Part shown: positions 28,327 through 40,036 of the stretch, piece by piece
Position numbering within the stretch: position 1 is the first letter of the stretch
Layout of the letters: every line of letters starts with the position of its first letter
Origin: Promethearchaeia archaeon
Lineage (GTDB): Archaea > Asgardarchaeota > Lokiarchaeia > Sigyniarchaeales > SOKP01
DNA length: 55,527 bases
NCBI GenBank assembly: GCA_029856155.1
Contig: JAHQWL010000021.1
Span: forward strand, 1 to 55,527
Direction of reading: 5' to 3'
Position numbers and translations under genes: made by a program
Notes under the pieces: generated by a model
Told to the model about the DNA's origin: nothing
What the model saw: the letters and a program-made list of their open reading frames with translations, nothing else
Databases searched by the model: none

Positions 28327-29466
28327 TTACGTTTTTTCTAATTCCATCTGGGAAATTGCTTTTCCAGATCGAAATGGAATATCCTCAAGAGACATACCTG
28401 CTTCAGATTTAAACTTCTTTTTAAAGCTTTCATTTAATGATTGAAAATATAATGATAACGGTAAGTTTTGAGGGCAATTATTATCGCAATTGCCACATTC
28501 TACACATCTATCAGCAACATGAGCTATACGTGTTAATTGGTACGTAGCCTTATCTATATTTTTGTCTTTTCTCTTTTTCTGTAGAATGCAGTCTACACAG
28601 TAGCAAACAGGGCATCCTCTTATACAAGTGTTGCACATAGTGCATTTAAGAAGTTCTGCTATTTTTTCTTTTTGTGAAAGCTTCTCCCATTCTTCCAAAT
28701 CTTTTGCTCGCTTTTCTTTTGCTTTTTCGATTATTTCATTATATTTATCTGTGTGTGCTTTTTTCTCCTTATCTGGAAGTGTTTTTTTCTTGATTCCTGA
28801 TTTATCCAATATATCACTTCCCTTATCAGAATACACTTTTAAGATAATCTCATCTGAATCAACTGGAATTCCAAGATCGCTTACAGTTAAATCAGCGACT
28901 ACCGGAATTTTGCGATAGCATCTCAAACAATTCTCCGCAACAGTAAGATTAAGTTCTTTTGTGCTTCCATCTTCCATTTTGACAATAAGTCCTTTGTCTC
29001 CTACTTTTTCTTTAATAATTTTCGTAGCATCAACATCCTTAATTGATCTCATTTCTCTTGCTGCTTTAGGAAGCATCCCTCGATCTTCTATTCCAATTAT
29101 AAAAAGATTATTGAGATTTACTTGTTTTATTTTAGCAAGTTCAATTAATGCTCTGGTATCACACGGTCGTGCAATAAGACCCACCTTCTCTTTCATTGCA
29201 CCCGCTACGGACTTATGTAAATATTTTGAAGCTGAATCTGTTCTTGCATATCCAAATGCAATTAAAGGAGTTAATGGAAAATCTTTCACATCTTCTTCTT
29301 TTTCTGCTAATTTAGGCTGAACAGTAAATCTATCTATATTCCCGGATTTCTTGTCAACTTTCAATTCAGCACCAATTATTTTGTCTACTGCTTTTTCTTT
29401 TAATAAAGTTGTTAAGATTTTCGGAAAATCTTCAATCTTTATTAAATATTCTGCCATTGCTTCCAT
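28327..29466 (-). CDS. Coenzyme F420 hydrogenase/formate dehydrogenase beta subunit (FrhB/FdhB family)
   Basis: ARPCDTRA, CLRC, ADLTVS, CTMCNTCIRGCPVCYC, CVECGNCDNNCP. Confidence 0.88.
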   Translation of the reverse strand: MEAMAEYLIKIEDFPKILTTLLKEKAVDKIIGAELKVDKKSGNIDRFTVQPKLAEKEEDVKDFPLTPLIAFGYARTDSASKYLHKSVAGAMKEKVGLIARPCDTRALIELAKIKQVNLNNLFIIGIEDRGMLPKAAREMRSIKDVDATKIIKEKVGDKGLIVKMEDGSTKELNLTVAENCLRCYRKIPVVADLTVSDLGIPVDSDEIILKVYSDKGSDILDKSGIKKKTLPDKEKKAHTDKYNEIIEKAKEKRAKDLEEWEKLSQKEKIAELLKCTMCNTCIRGCPVCYCVDCILQKKRKDKNIDKATYQLTRIAHVADRCVECGNCDNNCPQNLPLSLYFQSLNESFKKKFKSEAGMSLEDIPFRSGKAISQMELEKT

Positions 29467-29530: not shown

Positions 29531-29603
29531 ATGTGTTATATGGTGCACCCATTTCTTCAACTGAGTTCTCATTTTTTTAACTCAGCCTCATCAGTAAACA
29601 CAT
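29531..29603 (-). promoter_or_regulatory. Eukaryote-like SECIS element 3' of vhuD
   Basis: Minus strand: AUGUGUU-UACUG-AUGAG-GCUGAGUU-AAAAAAAUGAG-AACUCAGU-UGAA-GAA-AUGGGUGCACCAU-AU-AACACAU. Shows helix I, AUGA/GA core, helix II and A-rich apical loop, 6 nt after the vhuD stop. Confidence 0.88.
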
Positions 29604-29609
29604 TATTTT

Positions 29610-30062
29610 TTAAGCCTTAGCTTTCGCTTTAGCTTTTTCTTGTGTATCGCTTTTTTTTCGTAAAATACTTGGTCCTAGTTCTCGAATTACTTTATCGAAT
29701 TCTGTGGCTACTTTCTGGAACTTTGCACCTTCTGCAGAACTACAAAATTCCATTATTAACCTCTTTGGGTTTATTCCTACTGTTTTAATGACTGCTTTCA
29801 GATATTCAACTAGACGATAAGCAAAATAATTACCACTCTCGTAATCACATTCTCCCGGATATCATCCAACAATCATAACTCCATCAGCGCCTCTACCAAA
29901 AGCTCTCATTACTAGATCTGCTCCTACTCTACCTGTACATGGAACTAAGACGGTTCTTAAGGATGGTGGATACTGTGCTCTAATAGTTCCTGCCATATCA
30001 GCACCACCATATCCTCATTTTAAACATAAAAACGATAAAATTTTTATTTCATTATTTTTCAT
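29610..30062 (-). CDS. vhuD: Hydrogenase delta subunit VhuD/MvhD, selenoprotein with 2 in-frame UGA (150 aa), absent from ORF track
   Basis: MKNNEIKILSFLCLK(U)GYGGADMAG...VPCTGRV...GADGVMIVG(U)YPGECDYESGN...SSAEGAKF; TGA at 30017-30015 (codon 16) and 29864-29862 (codon 67); GAGGTG RBS; TAA stop. Confidence 0.93.
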
Positions 30063-30075
30063 TGTATCCACCTCT

Positions 30076-32052
30076 TTACTCCTCAATAGGTAATAATTCA
30101 TCAATATATGCAACATACTGATTATCTTTATAATGAGCTAGCTCTATAGCTTTTGAGGGACAAAGTGATTCGCAAATTCCACATCCTCTACAGCTAATAA
30201 TATCCACTTGAATTAATCCATTTTCATTGATTGAAATCGCACCATATGGACACGCTTCAATACATTTATAACATTTAGCACAACGTTCATCTAATGGTTG
30301 AGCACGGATTAATTCCATTGTATATTTCTCATTTTTCATAGGTATATTAGCTGAGGAAGCAGCCCCCTTCGCTTGACTAACAGTGAGATCTATAGATTTT
30401 TGTCCTTGACAAGAACCCGCTAAATAGATACCTGGGACTTTTGTATTAATTGGATCGAGCCGTGCATGCCTTTCTTTTAAGAATCCATCCGGTGTTTTTT
30501 CGATATTCATTACCGAAGCTATTTCATTTGTACCTTGAGAAGGCAAAGAAGCTGATGATAATACTACCATATGGAATTCCATTTCTACGATAGAATCTGT
30601 ACCAACTGGTTCAAATTGTATTTTTAGATTTTTAGTGAGAGGATCTTCTTCTATTTTTCCAATTAAACCTTTGATAAATAATATTCCCGCATCTCGAGCT
30701 CTTCTATAGTATTCTTCATACATTTTTCCAGCACATCTCATATCGATATAACTTACAACAATCTCTGAATCAGGGTATTCTGACATTATTAACTTAGAAT
30801 TCTTTACAGATAAATTACAACATACCACACTGCAATACTCATTTGTTTTTAAAGATCTTGATCCTACACAATTTATAAATAAAACCTTTGTAGGACGCTT
30901 TCCATCGGAGGGACGTTTCAAATGTCCAAAAGTTGGACCATTTGGCGCAATTATCCTCTCTAACTGGATTTGTGTAATTACATTCTCATAGCTTCCATAA
31001 CCATAATCATCACCTTGATAAAGATCCCAGCCTGTAGCGACTATTATTGTACCTACTTCCAATTCTAAGATCTTCTCTTGTTGACTAAAATCTATTGCTT
31101 CAGTATCACATGCATCTACACATGCAAAACATTCAATGCAAGAATCTCTTTCAATATCTGAGATTGCAGGAACTGCTTGAGCAAATGCTATATCTATGCA
31201 TTTTCGTGCGGAGAGATTTTCATCAAAGTAATTTGGTATATATACTGGGCATACTTCAGTACATGCACCACACCCAGTACATTTGTCTTCATGAACAAAA
31301 CGTGGTCTTCTCTTTACTTTTACCCTAAAATTACCGATATATCCTTCAACACTAATTACTTCACTATAAGATAAAATTTCGATATTTTCATGTCTATCCG
31401 CTTCAAGCATTTTTGGACCAAGAATTCATATACTACAATCATCGGTGGGAAATGTTCGATCAAGTTGGGACATTCTTCCTCCGATTGTAGTTTTCTTTTC
31501 TACTAAATATACTTTATAGCCTGCATCACCTAAGTCAATAGCTGCACTTAATCCCGCAATTCCTCCTCCAATAACTAGTGAAGTTGTTTTTATTGGAACC
31601 GTTTTTGTAGGAATATCCTCTAATAATTGTGCTCTTGAGATGCCTGCCTTAATTAATTCAATTGCTTTTACATTTGCTTTATCTCGAATTTCTTTTGCTT
31701 GATGAACATAACTACAATGTTCTCTAATATTAGTAAATTCTAAATATCTCTGTGGTATTCCTGCTTCTTTTAAGATTCCATGAAAAACAGGCTCATGGGT
31801 TAAAGGAGTTCAAGCAGCAACAACTACACGATTGAATCCCTTTTCTTCTATTTGTTCCTTTATATATTCAGCTCCACCAGATGTACACATATTTAAATAT
31901 TCATAACTATACACGTTAGGTAGTTTACCAATTTCATCTACAATTTTTGGAACATCTAAAATACCTGCAACATTGATACCTCAGCGACACACAAATACGC
32001 CAACAACTGGCTTTTCATCGTTACTATTTTCATTGGTCTGTTTTCCAGACAA
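30076..32052 (-). CDS. hdrA: Heterodisulfide reductase subunit A, selenoprotein with 3 in-frame UGA (658 aa); the track shows only the C-terminal 444 aa
   Basis: AGGTGA RBS plus TTG at 32052; GVFVCR(U)GINVAG, VVVAA(U)TPLTHE, NIREHCS, IGGGIAG, TFPTDDCSI(U)ILGP, continuous in frame with the ORF starting at 31410; TGA at codons 24, 81 and 209. Confidence 0.92.
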
Positions 32053-32345
32053 ATATATCACCTTAGTTAAACCTAACCTCCTAATTTTTAACGATCATAT
32101 TTCCTCTTAGTTTCTTAGAGTAAACATAAGAAATGTATTATGATCATGTAAATAGTCTATATTATTAAAATTAAATTATTATAACATGTCAATTCTCTTT
32201 TAGTAATATTTCATGAGTTTATAATCAATGTTTAATTCAAAGGACTCATTAAATTGAAACTTATAGAGGAAATTGTTTAATAATTATATTAAGTGAAATT
32301 TTAAAAATTTAGAATAAAAAATAAAGGAAATTGAAAATAAAAAAT

Positions 32346-32903
32346 TTAAGCTTCTGTTTCTTTTAGGATATCTCCAAATAGTCGTTTTACAGCATCAATT
32401 CGTTTCTCTTCACCAATTTGTTCTACGTCTTTTAAAGATATGGCTTCTTTTGGGCAAACATCAATACATGCAGGATATCTTTCTCCCCTTTCAGGATCTA
32501 TATATTCTTCCTTCATTGTTTCACAAAGATCACAGATAATAGCCTTCTGGGATTGTAAATGTAAGCTTAGAACCCCAAAATCACATGCACGGATACAAAA
32601 AGCACATCCATTGCATTTATCATCATTTACTATAATTGATCCAGTTTCTTTATCTTGCTCTAAAGCTTTTTCTGGACAACTACGAACACATGGAGCATTA
32701 TCACACTTTTGGCATGCTAATGCGACATTTAAGATAGGTTCAATCCTTACTCTATGAATTCTTGTATTAATTGGGTTAAATTCACCATCATGCACGAATG
32801 AACAAACAGATTCACATGTCTCGCAACCTGTACAAAGATTTGGGTCTACAATAATAAATTGGTGGACTATACCGCCTCTTTTTTTCGTTCCACTTTTTGA
32901 CAT
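32346..32903 (-). CDS. 4Fe-4S dicluster protein (AOR electron-transfer subunit)
   Basis: CTGCETC, CQKCDNAPCVRSCP, CNGCAFCIRAC, CDLC...PACIDVCP. Confidence 0.9.
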   Translation of the reverse strand: MSKSGTKKRGGIVHQFIIVDPNLCTGCETCESVCSFVHDGEFNPINTRIHRVRIEPILNVALACQKCDNAPCVRSCPEKALEQDKETGSIIVNDDKCNGCAFCIRACDFGVLSLHLQSQKAIICDLCETMKEEYIDPERGERYPACIDVCPKEAISLKDVEQIGEEKRIDAVKRLFGDILKETEA

Positions 32904-32906
32904 TTA

Positions 32907-34835
32907 CTATTTACCTCCAGCAGCTTTTAATTTACCAATTACAAAATCTAATCCAAGAGACTTTAATGTTTCATCAGTTGGAATTCCTGTCTTAGTATCC
33001 CAGCCACGAGCTTCATAATAACCACTTAATAACGTTTGATATCCTTCTTCCTTTAAAGTAACTCCTTTAGCTGGTCCTTTTGTATGTGATTCCTTAAAGA
33101 ACCTCTCAGGAGGGTGATCATCATCTCTTGTCCATCCTTCTCGAATGTTAAAGCATTTTGAAAGATTAACTATGGCATCTCCTCTCTTTTGTATAAATTT
33201 ATCAGTTACCGGAATTCCAGTTACAAGTTCAAAGACTTTAGCCATTTCAGCATCATTTTCATAAATTCCTCGAGTAAATTTACATACTATATATGAATCA
33301 ATAATTCCATAGATGTCTTCTAATTCCTTAATAGCTTTTCCTCTTTCAAGGGGTTTATCATAGGCAAATCTATCAAATTTACCTTTTGCGTCTAATCCAT
33401 ATGCTCCATTTCTTAAATGGCATGCTCCTCTAATGGAAACACTTTCTCCAACGGCAAATGAGGACATTCCATGAAGATCAAATGCCGGCATTTCCAAGCC
33501 TTTAATGTGCATACCGTAAAAGCTAGCATTTTTTATTCCTTTTTCCTCTAATCTGATGCCTGCTTGTTTAGTACCATCGCCAAAAATCTCCCCAGCAAAG
33601 CCCTTACCAAGTATCATTTCTTCTGTGAATTTCACGAGATTTACCGTTGATCCAAAGGGTAATTCATAGCCTAAATCCTTTTTAGTAATTAAACCGAGAT
33701 CATATAATTCACAGGCCATTGCGGCAGTTACACCTCCTGAAATTGCGTCAATCCCTAAATCATCGCATAATTGAACGCATTTAAATACGGTAGGCCAATC
33801 TGAACACCCCGTAGCACTGCCAAACGAATAACAAATTTCTACATCTATGCTTGCATATAAATTAGGCCAATTAGGATGTGTTTTTGGTACATGTGCGATG
33901 TGATCGCATGCAATAGAGCATTGAGAGCATCCAACCTTTTTCACTACCCAATCTTCATTAAGAGTATCACCTGTAAAAGTTCCATCGTCAATCTTTTCCC
34001 ATGTTCCCTCACGATGGTTACAAATTGGGAACATCCCTAACTTATTGTAGCTTGTTATCCCTGCAGGCGTACCTAAATCACGATATTTAGCAGTAGCAGG
34101 ACCATTAGCAACCTTAATTAATTTTCTCGCTAGCTTATAAAATTCAACTGGTTGAGCAACTTTTACGCCTTTTGTGCCTCTAAAGCATATTGCTTTTAGA
34201 TTCTTAGACCCCATAACTGTACCCATGCCAGTTCTACCTGCTTGTCTGTTACGATCATTAGTTATACACGCCATTCGGCTCATTCGTTCTCCAGCAGGAC
34301 CAATTGCCATGACTGCCAATCTCTGATCTTGAAATTCTTCTCTTACAAGTTCTTCTGTATCCCAACAACCTTTTCCCGCAAGGTCTGGGCATGGTACAAT
34401 ATAATAATCATCATCATCCACAACCATATATGAAAGTTCAGATGCTTTCCCTTTGAATACAACCATATTGATACCAGCGCGGCGAGCTTGAGCTCCAATG
34501 GATCCAGAGGATATTGACATACCAAACATACCGGTTAATGGAGATTTAGCAAATACTCCATATTTAGAACTTGTTGGTAGTATAGTAGCTGGAAATGGGC
34601 CATGTGCATACAAAAATACGTTCTCTGGGCTTAGGGGATCAACTCCCGCAGGACATTCGTCCCATAGGATTTTAGCAGCAAAACCATATCCACCAATCCA
34701 ATCGCGACAGAATTCATTAGATAGTGTAGATTTACTAATCTTTCCATCGGTTAGATCTACATCAAGTCTAAGTTGTGTATAACCCGAAATCTTATCAGGA
34801 ATAGTTATTTCTTTAGTTTTACTCATGTTTTTCAC
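32907..34835 (-). CDS. aor: Aldehyde:ferredoxin oxidoreductase family protein
   Basis: AKSPLTG, IGPAGE, GRTGMGTVMGSKNLKA, CDDLGIDAIS, RGACH, YYEARGWD; start possibly ATG at 34826. Confidence 0.92.
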   Translation of the reverse strand: MKNMSKTKEITIPDKISGYTQLRLDVDLTDGKISKSTLSNEFCRDWIGGYGFAAKILWDECPAGVDPLSPENVFLYAHGPFPATILPTSSKYGVFAKSPLTGMFGMSISSGSIGAQARRAGINMVVFKGKASELSYMVVDDDDYYIVPCPDLAGKGCWDTEELVREEFQDQRLAVMAIGPAGERMSRMACITNDRNRQAGRTGMGTVMGSKNLKAICFRGTKGVKVAQPVEFYKLARKLIKVANGPATAKYRDLGTPAGITSYNKLGMFPICNHREGTWEKIDDGTFTGDTLNEDWVVKKVGCSQCSIACDHIAHVPKTHPNWPNLYASIDVEICYSFGSATGCSDWPTVFKCVQLCDDLGIDAISGGVTAAMACELYDLGLITKKDLGYELPFGSTVNLVKFTEEMILGKGFAGEIFGDGTKQAGIRLEEKGIKNASFYGMHIKGLEMPAFDLHGMSSFAVGESVSIRGACHLRNGAYGLDAKGKFDRFAYDKPLERGKAIKELEDIYGIIDSYIVCKFTRGIYENDAEMAKVFELVTGIPVTDKFIQKRGDAIVNLSKCFNIREGWTRDDDHPPERFFKESHTKGPAKGVTLKEEGYQTLLSGYYEARGWDTKTGIPTDETLKSLGLDFVIGKLKAAGGK

Positions 34836-37273: not shown

Positions 37274-40036
37274 TTACACTAAAAAGAGTAGTCTTCCGAG
37301 AAAACTTACGATATCGATAACCTTTATTTTATTTTTTAATTCTCTGTTTTCATTTAGATAACAATTTAAATGGGCAATACATTTAGGGCATGCAGTAATA
37401 AGGTATTCTGCTCCAGTTTCAATTGCTTGTAATATTTTTTTTTCTTGTAATTTTTTTGAATCTTGATTGCAAGAAACATAAGCCGAAACACCACAACAAT
37501 CTGCATCTTGCTTATTATCTTCCATTTCTATTAATTCTAAAGATGGTATAAGTTTCAATACCTCACGTGGTGCATCGAAAACGTTACTCATCCTCCCAAG
37601 CCTACATGGATCATGGTAGGTTACTTTAATTTTGTCAAAACCAGGAAAAGTTATATCTTTTAATAGATTTTCTTTAAGAATATATTCACTGATATGATAA
37701 ATATCAAAATCAAACTCGTCATTACCTTCAAATAATTTTTTATACTCATTTTTCCATGTATAATATCCTTCAGCACAACTAAAAATAAGAGTTTTCACTC
37801 CTGCATCTTTAAATAATTTTATATTATATTCCGCCAAAGTCTTAAATGTATCAACGTCTCCACGCCAAAGACTATCATGGCCACAACATTTTTCTTTTGG
37901 TAGAACAACTGGAGTTATGTTATTTTGATTTAATAAACCAATTACACTCTTGGGGATCTCATAATAATTAGGTGCATTTATTGAAGGCCAAATATCTTGA
38001 CTCCCATAATCACAGATCATAACACCTGAATCATCAAGTGCTTTTTCAAAATCCTCTGGCATCTGGTCAGTATTACAACAACAATTACAATTCAAACATC
38101 GATTAGCTTCTTTCTTTGCTTGTTCTTCAGTAAATCCTAATTCAATTTCCTCGAAACATACTAATCTCTCAGATCCAGGCATAAAATTCATGTCTTGACA
38201 TGTTTGAGTTTGAATGTATTTTTTAGGTATTGTAGATCGCTTAAGATCATTCTTTCTTATTCTTCCTTCCTTTAAGTCAAGTCCACGGAGATATCTATTA
38301 ATCGAATAAGCTGCTTCTCTACCATCTCCAATCGCATCAACAGCGCACATTAATGAGTTATAAATGATATCACCACCAGCAAAAACTCCTGGAATTCCTG
38401 TTTCATAAGTTAAATCATCAACTACAATTTTACCTCTTTCAATGTCTAATTTATTTTCTGTAGCAGCATTAATGGGTTCTGGATCAAGCCCTTGACCGAT
38501 AGCTATGACAATATAATCAACTACAATTTTAAACTCTGAACCTTCAATTTTACTTAATGGTCTTCTCCCTGTTTTAGGATCTGGATCTCCCCATTTTATT
38601 TTATAACAATTTAAGGCTAATTTACCATCAGATTCTTGTGTAATGTTTGCGGTTGATGTCTCAAAATGATACTCCATTACTTCTCGTTCAGCTTCATGTA
38701 AATCTTTAATTACATTCTTTAGAGCCTCTTCGGTTAAAATATCTACGAGATCAACTTTAGTTGCTCCTAACCGAAGTGCAGTTTCACCAACATCTACAGC
38801 AACTGCACCCCCTCCTATAATTCCAAAAGTTTTTCCTTTAAATTCTTCTGGATTTTCTGAACACTTATATTTTCGATCTAAAAGGAAATCAAGTGCCACA
38901 TGGACATTTGGTAAATTCTCACCTTCAAGTCTAAGAGTTTTTGGAACATATAAACCTACAGCTATAAAGATTGCCTTATATCCCTGTTTCCATATATCTT
39001 CTATAGTAAAATCTGGACCGAATTCTTTATTTAAAACAATTTCTACACCCATACTTTTTATAAATTCTACATCCTGATCTAAAGCCTTGTCAGAAAGTCT
39101 GTATTGTGGCACACCATATCTTACTACTCCACCAGTCTTATCACCTTTCTCGAAAATAGTCGGTTTATATCCCATTCTTGCAAGAAAATATCCTGCTGAT
39201 AACCCACCTGGTCCGGCACCAATAATGGCAATCTTTTCTTTAGTTTGTGGTACGGGTTTTATTTTACTTTGGTTAGGATGTTCAACTTCCCAGTCGCAAA
39301 CAAACCTTTTAAGTTCGCGTATCGCTATTGGATCATCAAAATGTTGACGGTTACAATTTAAGGCACATTGAGCTGTACAAATTCTCCCACATAAATATGG
39401 TAATGGATTTGTTTCTCTTATCAAATCGAGAGCTTCTTGATACTTACCTTCTGCTATTAGTGATACATAACCTTGAACATCTACTCCAGCGGGACATCCT
39501 ACAACACATGGAGCCGCACCTGTTAAAAAGGGAACACATCCCATAAAATAACCAATTTCTCCCTTATCAGTTGTTTTTAATCCCGTTCCATCAAGGAAAC
39601 CTATTTTATTAGTAAATTTAATTTTGTCTTCAGCCATTAATTTTGGTAGACTTGAATATACCCTCTCGTAATTACAACTTAATAATCCATCTTGTAATGG
39701 CTTATAGTTTGAAGCAAGAGAGCGAAGGTCCTTAATAATTTGGTTGAAATTTACTCCAGTATTCTCTTTAGTCATTGGACAGTAAATGGAACATAACCCG
39801 CATGTAAGGCATTTCCATATATCATTATTTTTTAAAGCTTCTTCTGGTGTTAGAAAAGTTAAATCAGTTATTAGGCTACGTGGGTAAAAAATGTTGAGAA
39901 AAGCAGTTGGGCATACATTATTACAACGATTACAATTATAGCAATAGTTAGCAGCAGAATTTACTTTTTTAAGCAACTCTATTGAAGTTGTTCCCTTGAT
40001 TTTATCATCAGCTATTTTATTGTTAGATTCAGTCAT
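37274..40036 (-). CDS. HdrD/GlpC-like Fe-S oxidoreductase with inserted GltD/NfnB-like FAD/NAD(P) module
   Basis: N-terminal CYNCNRC and CLTCGLC; APCVVGCP, CGRIC, GAGPGG, GVFAGGD; then KCCG, YHDPCRLGR, DCCG, TACPKC. Confidence 0.85.
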   Translation of the reverse strand: MTESNNKIADDKIKGTTSIELLKKVNSAANYCYNCNRCNNVCPTAFLNIFYPRSLITDLTFLTPEEALKNNDIWKCLTCGLCSIYCPMTKENTGVNFNQIIKDLRSLASNYKPLQDGLLSCNYERVYSSLPKLMAEDKIKFTNKIGFLDGTGLKTTDKGEIGYFMGCVPFLTGAAPCVVGCPAGVDVQGYVSLIAEGKYQEALDLIRETNPLPYLCGRICTAQCALNCNRQHFDDPIAIRELKRFVCDWEVEHPNQSKIKPVPQTKEKIAIIGAGPGGLSAGYFLARMGYKPTIFEKGDKTGGVVRYGVPQYRLSDKALDQDVEFIKSMGVEIVLNKEFGPDFTIEDIWKQGYKAIFIAVGLYVPKTLRLEGENLPNVHVALDFLLDRKYKCSENPEEFKGKTFGIIGGGAVAVDVGETALRLGATKVDLVDILTEEALKNVIKDLHEAEREVMEYHFETSTANITQESDGKLALNCYKIKWGDPDPKTGRRPLSKIEGSEFKIVVDYIVIAIGQGLDPEPINAATENKLDIERGKIVVDDLTYETGIPGVFAGGDIIYNSLMCAVDAIGDGREAAYSINRYLRGLDLKEGRIRKNDLKRSTIPKKYIQTQTCQDMNFMPGSERLVCFEEIELGFTEEQAKKEANRCLNCNCCCNTDQMPEDFEKALDDSGVMICDYGSQDIWPSINAPNYYEIPKSVIGLLNQNNITPVVLPKEKCCGHDSLWRGDVDTFKTLAEYNIKLFKDAGVKTLIFSCAEGYYTWKNEYKKLFEGNDEFDFDIYHISEYILKENLLKDITFPGFDKIKVTYHDPCRLGRMSNVFDAPREVLKLIPSLELIEMEDNKQDADCCGVSAYVSCNQDSKKLQEKKILQAIETGAEYLITACPKCIAHLNCYLNENRELKNKIKVIDIVSFLGRLLFLV

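Follow-up and report, generated by a model that had tools for sequence, protein, structure and literature searches.

The hdrA and vhuD genes described here very probably form a bicistronic selenoprotein unit, in which five UGA codons would be read as selenocysteine (Sec) through a single lokiSECIS element and the genome's own decoding machinery. The window that we analysed is a stretch of 55,527 nucleotides (contig JAHQWL010000021.1 of assembly GCA_029856155.1) from a Promethearchaeia archaeon, Promethearchaeota/Promethearchaeia being the present NCBI name for Lokiarchaeota. On our reading, the UGAs at codons 24, 81 and 209 of hdrA and at codons 16 and 67 of vhuD would be decoded as Sec under the direction of one eukaryote-like lokiSECIS in the 3′ untranslated region of vhuD, located 0.27 to 2.4 kb further downstream, and the decoding would be carried out by the tRNA-Sec, PSTK, SepSecS, SelD and EFSec of the same genome. 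We infer that the genes are transcribed as a polycistronic mRNA. The HdrA product would serve as a flavin-based electron-bifurcating subunit and VhuD as a [2Fe-2S] adaptor, with an FdhB/ElpB-like protein encoded downstream as the likely electron-input module.

The hdrA gene and its UGA codons

The hdrA gene occupies positions 30076..32052 on the minus strand and encodes a 658-residue HdrA-family electron-bifurcating flavoprotein, with a TTG start, a TAA stop and three Sec codons. Translated with TGA as U, the frame yields 658 residues followed by TAA; U24, U81 and U209 are the sole interruptions, and there are no frameshifts and no internal TAA or TAG codons. Codon 24 (31981..31983, minus strand) lies in the motif C-R-U-G (VCR-U-G), codon 81 (31810..31812, minus strand) in A-A-U-T-P (VAA-U-TP), both within the N-terminal domain, and codon 209 (31426..31428, minus strand) in D-C-S-I-U (DCSI-U-ILGP), which is the canonical HdrA Sec site. 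A preliminary description of this DNA had proposed a 658-residue HdrA with TGAs at these three codons, and its coordinates and motifs were exact. Under translation table 11, only 30076-31410 remains as an open frame, corresponding to the C-terminal 444 residues. Gene callers truncate the gene, so hdrA annotations need correcting. Upstream of the TTG by three codons (region 32053-32064) is an in-frame GTG. In three orthologues (L040, L042 and L044) TGA takes the place of this codon, an observation in favour of the TTG, or its equivalent, being the true start. A scan for sigma-70 promoters and terminators is uninformative for archaea.

We aligned the read-through protein with the solved HdrA chains. 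Residues 15-654 align with 9sfi_A (E = 1e-198), and the alignments with 9sfi_A, 8rvu_a, 5odc_A and 7bkb_A are all full-length (E = 1e-198 to 8e-173). Each of U24, U81 and U209 falls opposite a Cys of the solved chains or, at the canonical site, opposite an X of 9sfi_A that is presumably Sec. These alignments bear out the proposals that the canonical Sec site of methanococcal HdrA is at codon 209 and that codons 24 and 81 replace conserved Cys residues of the N-terminal Fe-S domain.

The protein displays a four-domain layout, comprising an N-terminal Fe-S domain, a thioredoxin-reductase-like FAD domain, an inserted ferredoxin domain and a ferredoxin domain at the C terminus. Pfam recovered Fer4 and FAD/NAD-binding domains, and gave no match for residues 1-150. 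Conservation extends to all of the cluster-binding Cys motifs and to the DCxxC pair, with Cys or Sec present in essentially all orthologues at columns 22, 24, 56, 81, 206 and 209, and likewise at columns 258-268, 305-315, 395-412, 591-601 and 621-631. The scores lie below the NCBIfam equivalog cut-offs (738.8 bits against 1100 for NF040770, and 609 against 1400 for NF041778), so a function with CoM-S-S-CoB should not be assumed, and on its sequence we regard this HdrA as a family homologue. A fifth Cys of the N-terminal domain, at codon 113 (31714-31716, NIREH-C-S), occurs in 54/54 Loki orthologues and in at least 90% of paralogues; the position is Asp in the aligned methanogen HdrAs (9sfi and 8rvu).

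No hdrBC genes are adjacent to hdrA in the window. A 920-residue fusion, which might be a disulfide-reductase partner, is encoded 5 kb upstream (37274-40036, minus strand), comprising an HdrC-like 4Fe-4S part, a GltD-like flavoprotein part resembling the small subunit of NADPH-glutamate synthase, and two HdrB-type CCG domains. Also upstream, in a subset of loci, is an AOR and ferredoxin gene pair (32346-34835, minus strand), kept in 18-27 related loci. Downstream of hdrA-vhuD, after the SECIS, lies a gene for a 379-residue FdhB/ElpB-like protein (FrhB_FdhB_C; 28327..29466, minus strand), which matches 9t1s_M, 7bkb_E and 8rvu_E (E = 4e-38 to 7e-32) and is kept in 72 fetched loci.

Codon use at the UGA columns and competing explanations

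We examined the recoding signature in hdrA genes, orthologous and paralogous, of 60 genomes belonging to the same order, together with named Promethearchaeota/Promethearchaeia MAGs. This tabulation of TGA against TGY, which the preliminary description had proposed as a check, found the TGAs in dozens of independent assemblies, so that they are not unique to this one and greatly exceed what chance would produce. TGA stands at column 24 in 54/54 orthologues and at column 209 in 53/53, while column 81 has TGA in 24 and TGT or TGC in 30 of 54; no other codons occur at any of the three. The HdrA UGAs therefore align with Cys of homologues and alternate with Cys codons only. Between and beyond the TGAs, the gene is under purifying selection: pairwise comparisons with seven orthologues give a dN/dS of 0.03-0.10 for each of the segments 25-80, 82-208 and 210-658. 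Residues 2-23 are poorly conserved, with a dN/dS near 1 that indicates nearly neutral evolution. The hdrA stop codon is always TAA or TAG in the loci examined.

The source genome (4.1 Mb, 30% GC, 97% complete) holds four further Sec-type hdrA paralogues, at C98:52549-54486, C11:28429-30351, C22:47639-49546 and C3:5-1534, with 2, 2, 2 and 4 TGAs; in the copy on C3, Sec falls at columns 24, 56, 81 and 209. Both N-terminal sites had been termed atypical, a label that is not supported, since 54/54 orthologues and the five Sec-type paralogues of this genome alike have TGA at codon 24. The term holds only relative to Methanococcales; within the lineage, U24 is universal and U81 variable. Additional Sec columns were seen in three relatives: L090 (column 258), L109 (columns 56, 81 and 308) and L110 (column 624). 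Column 258 is the first Cys of a CxxCxxC motif in the inserted ferredoxin domain, column 308 is the second Cys of CIEC in the same domain, and column 624 lies in the last C-terminal cluster motif of HdrA. At columns 258 and 308, the residue would be a classical ligand of a ferredoxin cluster. With the TGAs of these relatives, Sec occurs at seven HdrA columns in the sample (24, 56, 81, 209, 258, 308 and 624).

The alternative that survives best accepts recoding and supposes that some or all sites receive Cys, or receive Sec in part according to selenium supply, giving a Sec/Cys mixture, especially at site 81. Sec and Cys have replaced each other at column 81 no fewer than five times (a minimum of 5-6 on a tree of 49 orthologues), which argues that Cys is functionally tolerated there, and the genome keeps three all-Cys full-length HdrA paralogues (C51, C55 and C71). 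However, every orthologue has TGA at columns 24 and 209, a fixation that points to a selected advantage specific to Sec, and we consider such a mixture improbable.

The remaining alternatives deny recoding to Sec altogether, and each seems to us to be scarcely worth entertaining. If hdrA were a pseudogene with three nonsense TGAs, at most the 444-residue C-terminal frame left open by table 11 would be made; yet as many as 54 independent MAGs share these TGAs, the low dN/dS persists between and after them, Cys codons are the only alternatives at their columns in a frame free of other lesions, and the genome has both a conserved SECIS and the Sec machinery. Errors of sequencing or assembly, or a peculiarity of this assembly, might be suspected in a MAG of 104 contigs with 5.7% contamination, but identical TGA positions are shared by assemblies from many separate projects at 67-96% protein identity, leaving this explanation with almost no probability. 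Equally negligible is a genome-wide reassignment of TGA (for example to Trp or Gly) that would be independent of a SECIS: several genes in the genome do contain in-frame TGAs, but these are limited to known selenoprotein families, where they always fall on Cys columns and have SECIS elements downstream of them, the genome encodes a dedicated tRNA-Sec(UCA), and TGA terminates 218 of the 1681 frames of at least 300 codons (13%). The column codons, the dN/dS values and the use of TGA as an ordinary stop thus exclude pseudogene, assembly error and global reassignment for practical purposes. That the hdrA UGAs are recoded codons and not products of decay, as had been proposed, is well supported by these comparative sequence data.

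The vhuD gene, the lokiSECIS and the selenocysteine machinery

The vhuD gene (vhuD/mvhD, FlpD family; 29610..30062, minus strand) begins 13 nt after the hdrA stop and encodes 150 residues, with two Sec codons. The product matches PF02662 (FlpD) with E = 2e-43. Codon 16 (30015..30017, minus strand) lies in C-L-K-U-G-Y, in gapless alignment with Cys16 of M. marburgensis MvhD, and codon 67 (29862..29864, minus strand) in V-G-U-Y-P-G-E-C. Both U16 and U67 align with conserved Cys residues of the solved MvhD/VhuD chains.

A lokiSECIS starts 18 nt past the vhuD TAA (29557..29591, minus strand), with the sequence AUGA-GGCUGAGUU-AAAAAAAUGAG-AACUCAGUU-GA. The element displays the AUGA...GA core, a 9-bp stem (GGCUGAGUU paired with AACUCAGUU) and an 11-nt, A-led loop (AAAAAAAUGAG). 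From this element, the distance is about 0.27-0.43 kb to the vhuD UGAs and 1.8-2.4 kb to those of hdrA. The strict lokiSECIS pattern matched six times genome-wide, compared with 0-3 times in shuffled genomes, and one of the other matches is directly after another Sec-type hdrA (contig C22). A strict-pattern scan found no second SECIS on the hdrA contig, and the 13-nt spacer leaves no room for one between hdrA and vhuD.

Across the orthologues, the SECIS holds the equivalent position after vhuD, and it was detected in 28 of the 37 loci scanned; the pattern missed some loci, with no match in L022, L033, L035, L051 and L059. In the stems of 22 orthologues, 93.9% of cells pair and compensatory double changes are present in eight of the nine pairs. 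This covariation was matched by none of 500 shuffles, and no slid register came close. Reads through TGA stops, such as the L052 'VhuD' with 6 U, are artefacts of translating TGA as U and were left uninterpreted. At gathering thresholds, Rfam returned no family match and the eukaryotic SECIS models did not match, while a permissive search gave chance snoRNA-like matches only. Rfam is without a lokiSECIS model, so this result says nothing against the SECIS.

We found tRNA-Sec, SepSecS and SelD genes in the genome, with candidates for PSTK and EFSec, and the expectation that Sec machinery would accompany the gene was borne out to this extent. The tRNA-Sec(UCA) (C44:153205-153297) is located 223 nt from SepSecS (C44:151825-152982, 385.6 bits), and the EFSec candidate (C44:157330-158373) about 4 kb from the tRNA-Sec. 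SelD (C63:7561-8400, minus strand, 182.6 bits) carries one in-frame TGA, consistent with a Sec-containing selenophosphate synthetase; Sec-containing SelD is known from Asgard archaea. The EFSec candidate scores 238.7 bits against a cut-off of 242.25, and the PSTK candidate (C28:32914-33663) scores 155.7 bits against a strict cut-off of 290.5 and covers positions 1-247 of 249; both cut-offs are curated NCBIfam values. We count these sub-cut-off scores, the Rfam nulls, the sub-equivalog HdrA score and the lack of adjacent hdrBC genes against the bicistronic selenoprotein unit, which we nonetheless hold with high confidence.

Possible roles of the Sec residues and comparison with known systems

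U24 and U81 would occupy two of the four invariant Cys positions of an N-terminal domain that probably carries HA3, a 'shuttle' [4Fe-4S] cluster. In the crystal structure, as described in PMC9012536, the N-terminal Fe-S cluster is bound by Cys residues of the N-terminal domain together with Cys197 of the partner protomer. U209 corresponds to this Cys197, to U197 of M. maripaludis and to Cys205 of M. marburgensis (PMC9012536, PMC13518236 and PMC13580544). Only four N-terminal-domain Cys columns (22, 24, 56 and 81) are invariant across Loki and methanogen HdrAs. By homology, the protein ligands of HA3 would be drawn from these columns, to which the partner's residue 209 may or may not be added, where the ligand residues are those of a secondary description within PMC9012536. 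If all four N-terminal positions are ligands, U24 and U81 would both bind HA3; if three of them and partner residue 209 are ligands, at least one of U24 and U81 would. At least one of the two would therefore be a direct HA3 ligand if three or four of columns 22, 24, 56 and 81 ligate.

The preliminary description had suggested that the N-terminal [4Fe-4S] cluster may have several Se ligands, which is plausible from the sequence and fits the reading of the crystal structure in PMC9012536. A stronger form, in which the HdrA Sec trio converges on one redox site, a [4Fe-4S] cluster whose two or three selenolate ligands would tune the low-potential bifurcation branch, is a tentative proposal that we judge somewhat more likely to be wrong than right. 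A competing account comes from two cryo-EM studies of 2026 (PMC13580544 and PMC13518236), which depict the N-terminal domain as a mobile arm that bears HA3 as the shuttle cluster. There, the canonical pair (Cys202/Cys205 in M. marburgensis, Cys/Sec197 in M. maripaludis) binds an unknown ligand or forms a selenylsulfide near the FAD, and MvhD Cys16 is named as another 'additional' Cys along the route by which the [2Fe-2S] cluster is linked to the FAD (PMC13580544 and PMC13518236). The relay role that these studies give to the canonical Cys/Sec near the FAD competes with a role as Se ligand. Since U209 aligns with Cys205 and VhuD U16 with MvhD Cys16, two of the five Sec residues of the operon would lie on the proposed relay, at 'additional' Cys positions between the VhuD/MvhD [2Fe-2S] cluster and the FAD.

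We also modelled the HdrA N-terminal domain (pLDDT 90.7; match to 5odh_A with a TM-score of 0.92). In this model, U24 is placed just after β1 and U81 just after β3. A Foldseek search with the domain returned MvhD (5odc_D) as the first non-HdrA match (E = 2e-4, TM-score 0.45), among generic flavodoxin-like folds. The model hints that U24 and U81 share topological spots, after β1 and β3, with the Sec pair of VhuD, as a parallel Sec pattern. Comparison of the N-terminal domain with the VhuD sequence was not significant (BLASTP E = 0.02-0.8, local hhalign probability 0.05%) and the fold match is weak, so an equivalence of U24/U81 with VhuD U16/U67 stays a topological hypothesis. As comparative material, the Sec pattern could help in designing experiments that ask why bifurcating Hdr enzymes have Sec selected at these positions: site 24 is Sec in every orthologue examined, site 81 has alternated between Sec and Cys, and two of the five Sec residues fall on the 'additional' Cys positions (HdrA Cys205 and MvhD Cys16).

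Among the known systems, the Elp-Hdr and Fdh-Hdr complexes of methanogens (PDB IDs: 8rvu and 7bkb; PMC12350162) are comparable with the window, where an FdhB/ElpB-like gene comes after an MvhD-like gene beside hdrA. Their electron-input module is the FdhB/ElpB subunit, which docks on HdrA via the MvhD homologue (PMC12350162). The presence of the FdhB/ElpB-like gene after the SECIS in 72 fetched loci suggests that hdrA-vhuD-fdhB-like is a conserved module analogous to the Elp-Hdr/Fdh-Hdr input modules. FdhA/ElpA-like and hdrBC genes are not adjacent in the Loki window.

The HdrA of Methanococcales and Methanopyrus (PDB ID: 9sfi) shares the four-domain architecture and about 50% sequence similarity. 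The canonical Sec in DCxxU is also shared, as are the two Sec positions of methanococcal VhuD. Methanococcal HdrA has a single Sec (for example U197 of M. maripaludis), with Cys where Loki HdrA has U24 and U81, and methanococcal hdrA uses the classical archaeal SECIS, whereas Loki hdrA-vhuD uses the lokiSECIS. Methanococcales and Methanopyrus are methanogens with CoM-S-S-CoB as the substrate, while Lokiarchaeia are non-methanogens.

The closest system is the published Loki tandem. Mariotti et al. (2016, PMC4989117) describe Lokiarchaeota HdrA with up to four Sec residues at five Cys positions, encoded by an hdrA that, in their account, is always directly upstream of vhuD, never stops at UGA and shares one lokiSECIS with vhuD. 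As given there, the lokiSECIS has a 9-bp stem, an 11-nt A-rich loop and an AUGA/GA core, occurs only after vhuD, and serves as many as six UGAs across some 2 kb (PMC4989117). In the catalogue of 1439 Asgard selenoproteins by Huang et al. (2024, PMC11227280), HdrA and FrhD/VhuD are the most abundant, with SECIS elements in common. HdrA with multiple Sec residues, including N-terminal ones, is thus already published in the accounts of PMC4989117 and PMC11227280, and the novelty implied by the preliminary description falls away. As those accounts present it, the hdrA-vhuD arrangement is already known, having been described for Lokiarchaeota in 2016 and extended across Asgard archaea in 2024. Since they describe the same system, the present pair is another member of that class. 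It resembles the tandem, as set out in PMC4989117 and PMC11227280, in the position of hdrA just upstream of vhuD with a very short spacer, in the two Sec residues of VhuD, in the sole SECIS after vhuD and in an hdrA stop that is never UGA, and it resembles the lokiSECIS of PMC4989117 in the core, the 9-bp stem and the 11-nt A-led loop. Measured against these descriptions, nothing essential differs; the Sec columns number seven in the fetched relatives compared with five in PMC4989117, and the unit with its long-range, eukaryote-like SECIS is a further example of the published Loki HdrA-VhuD class.
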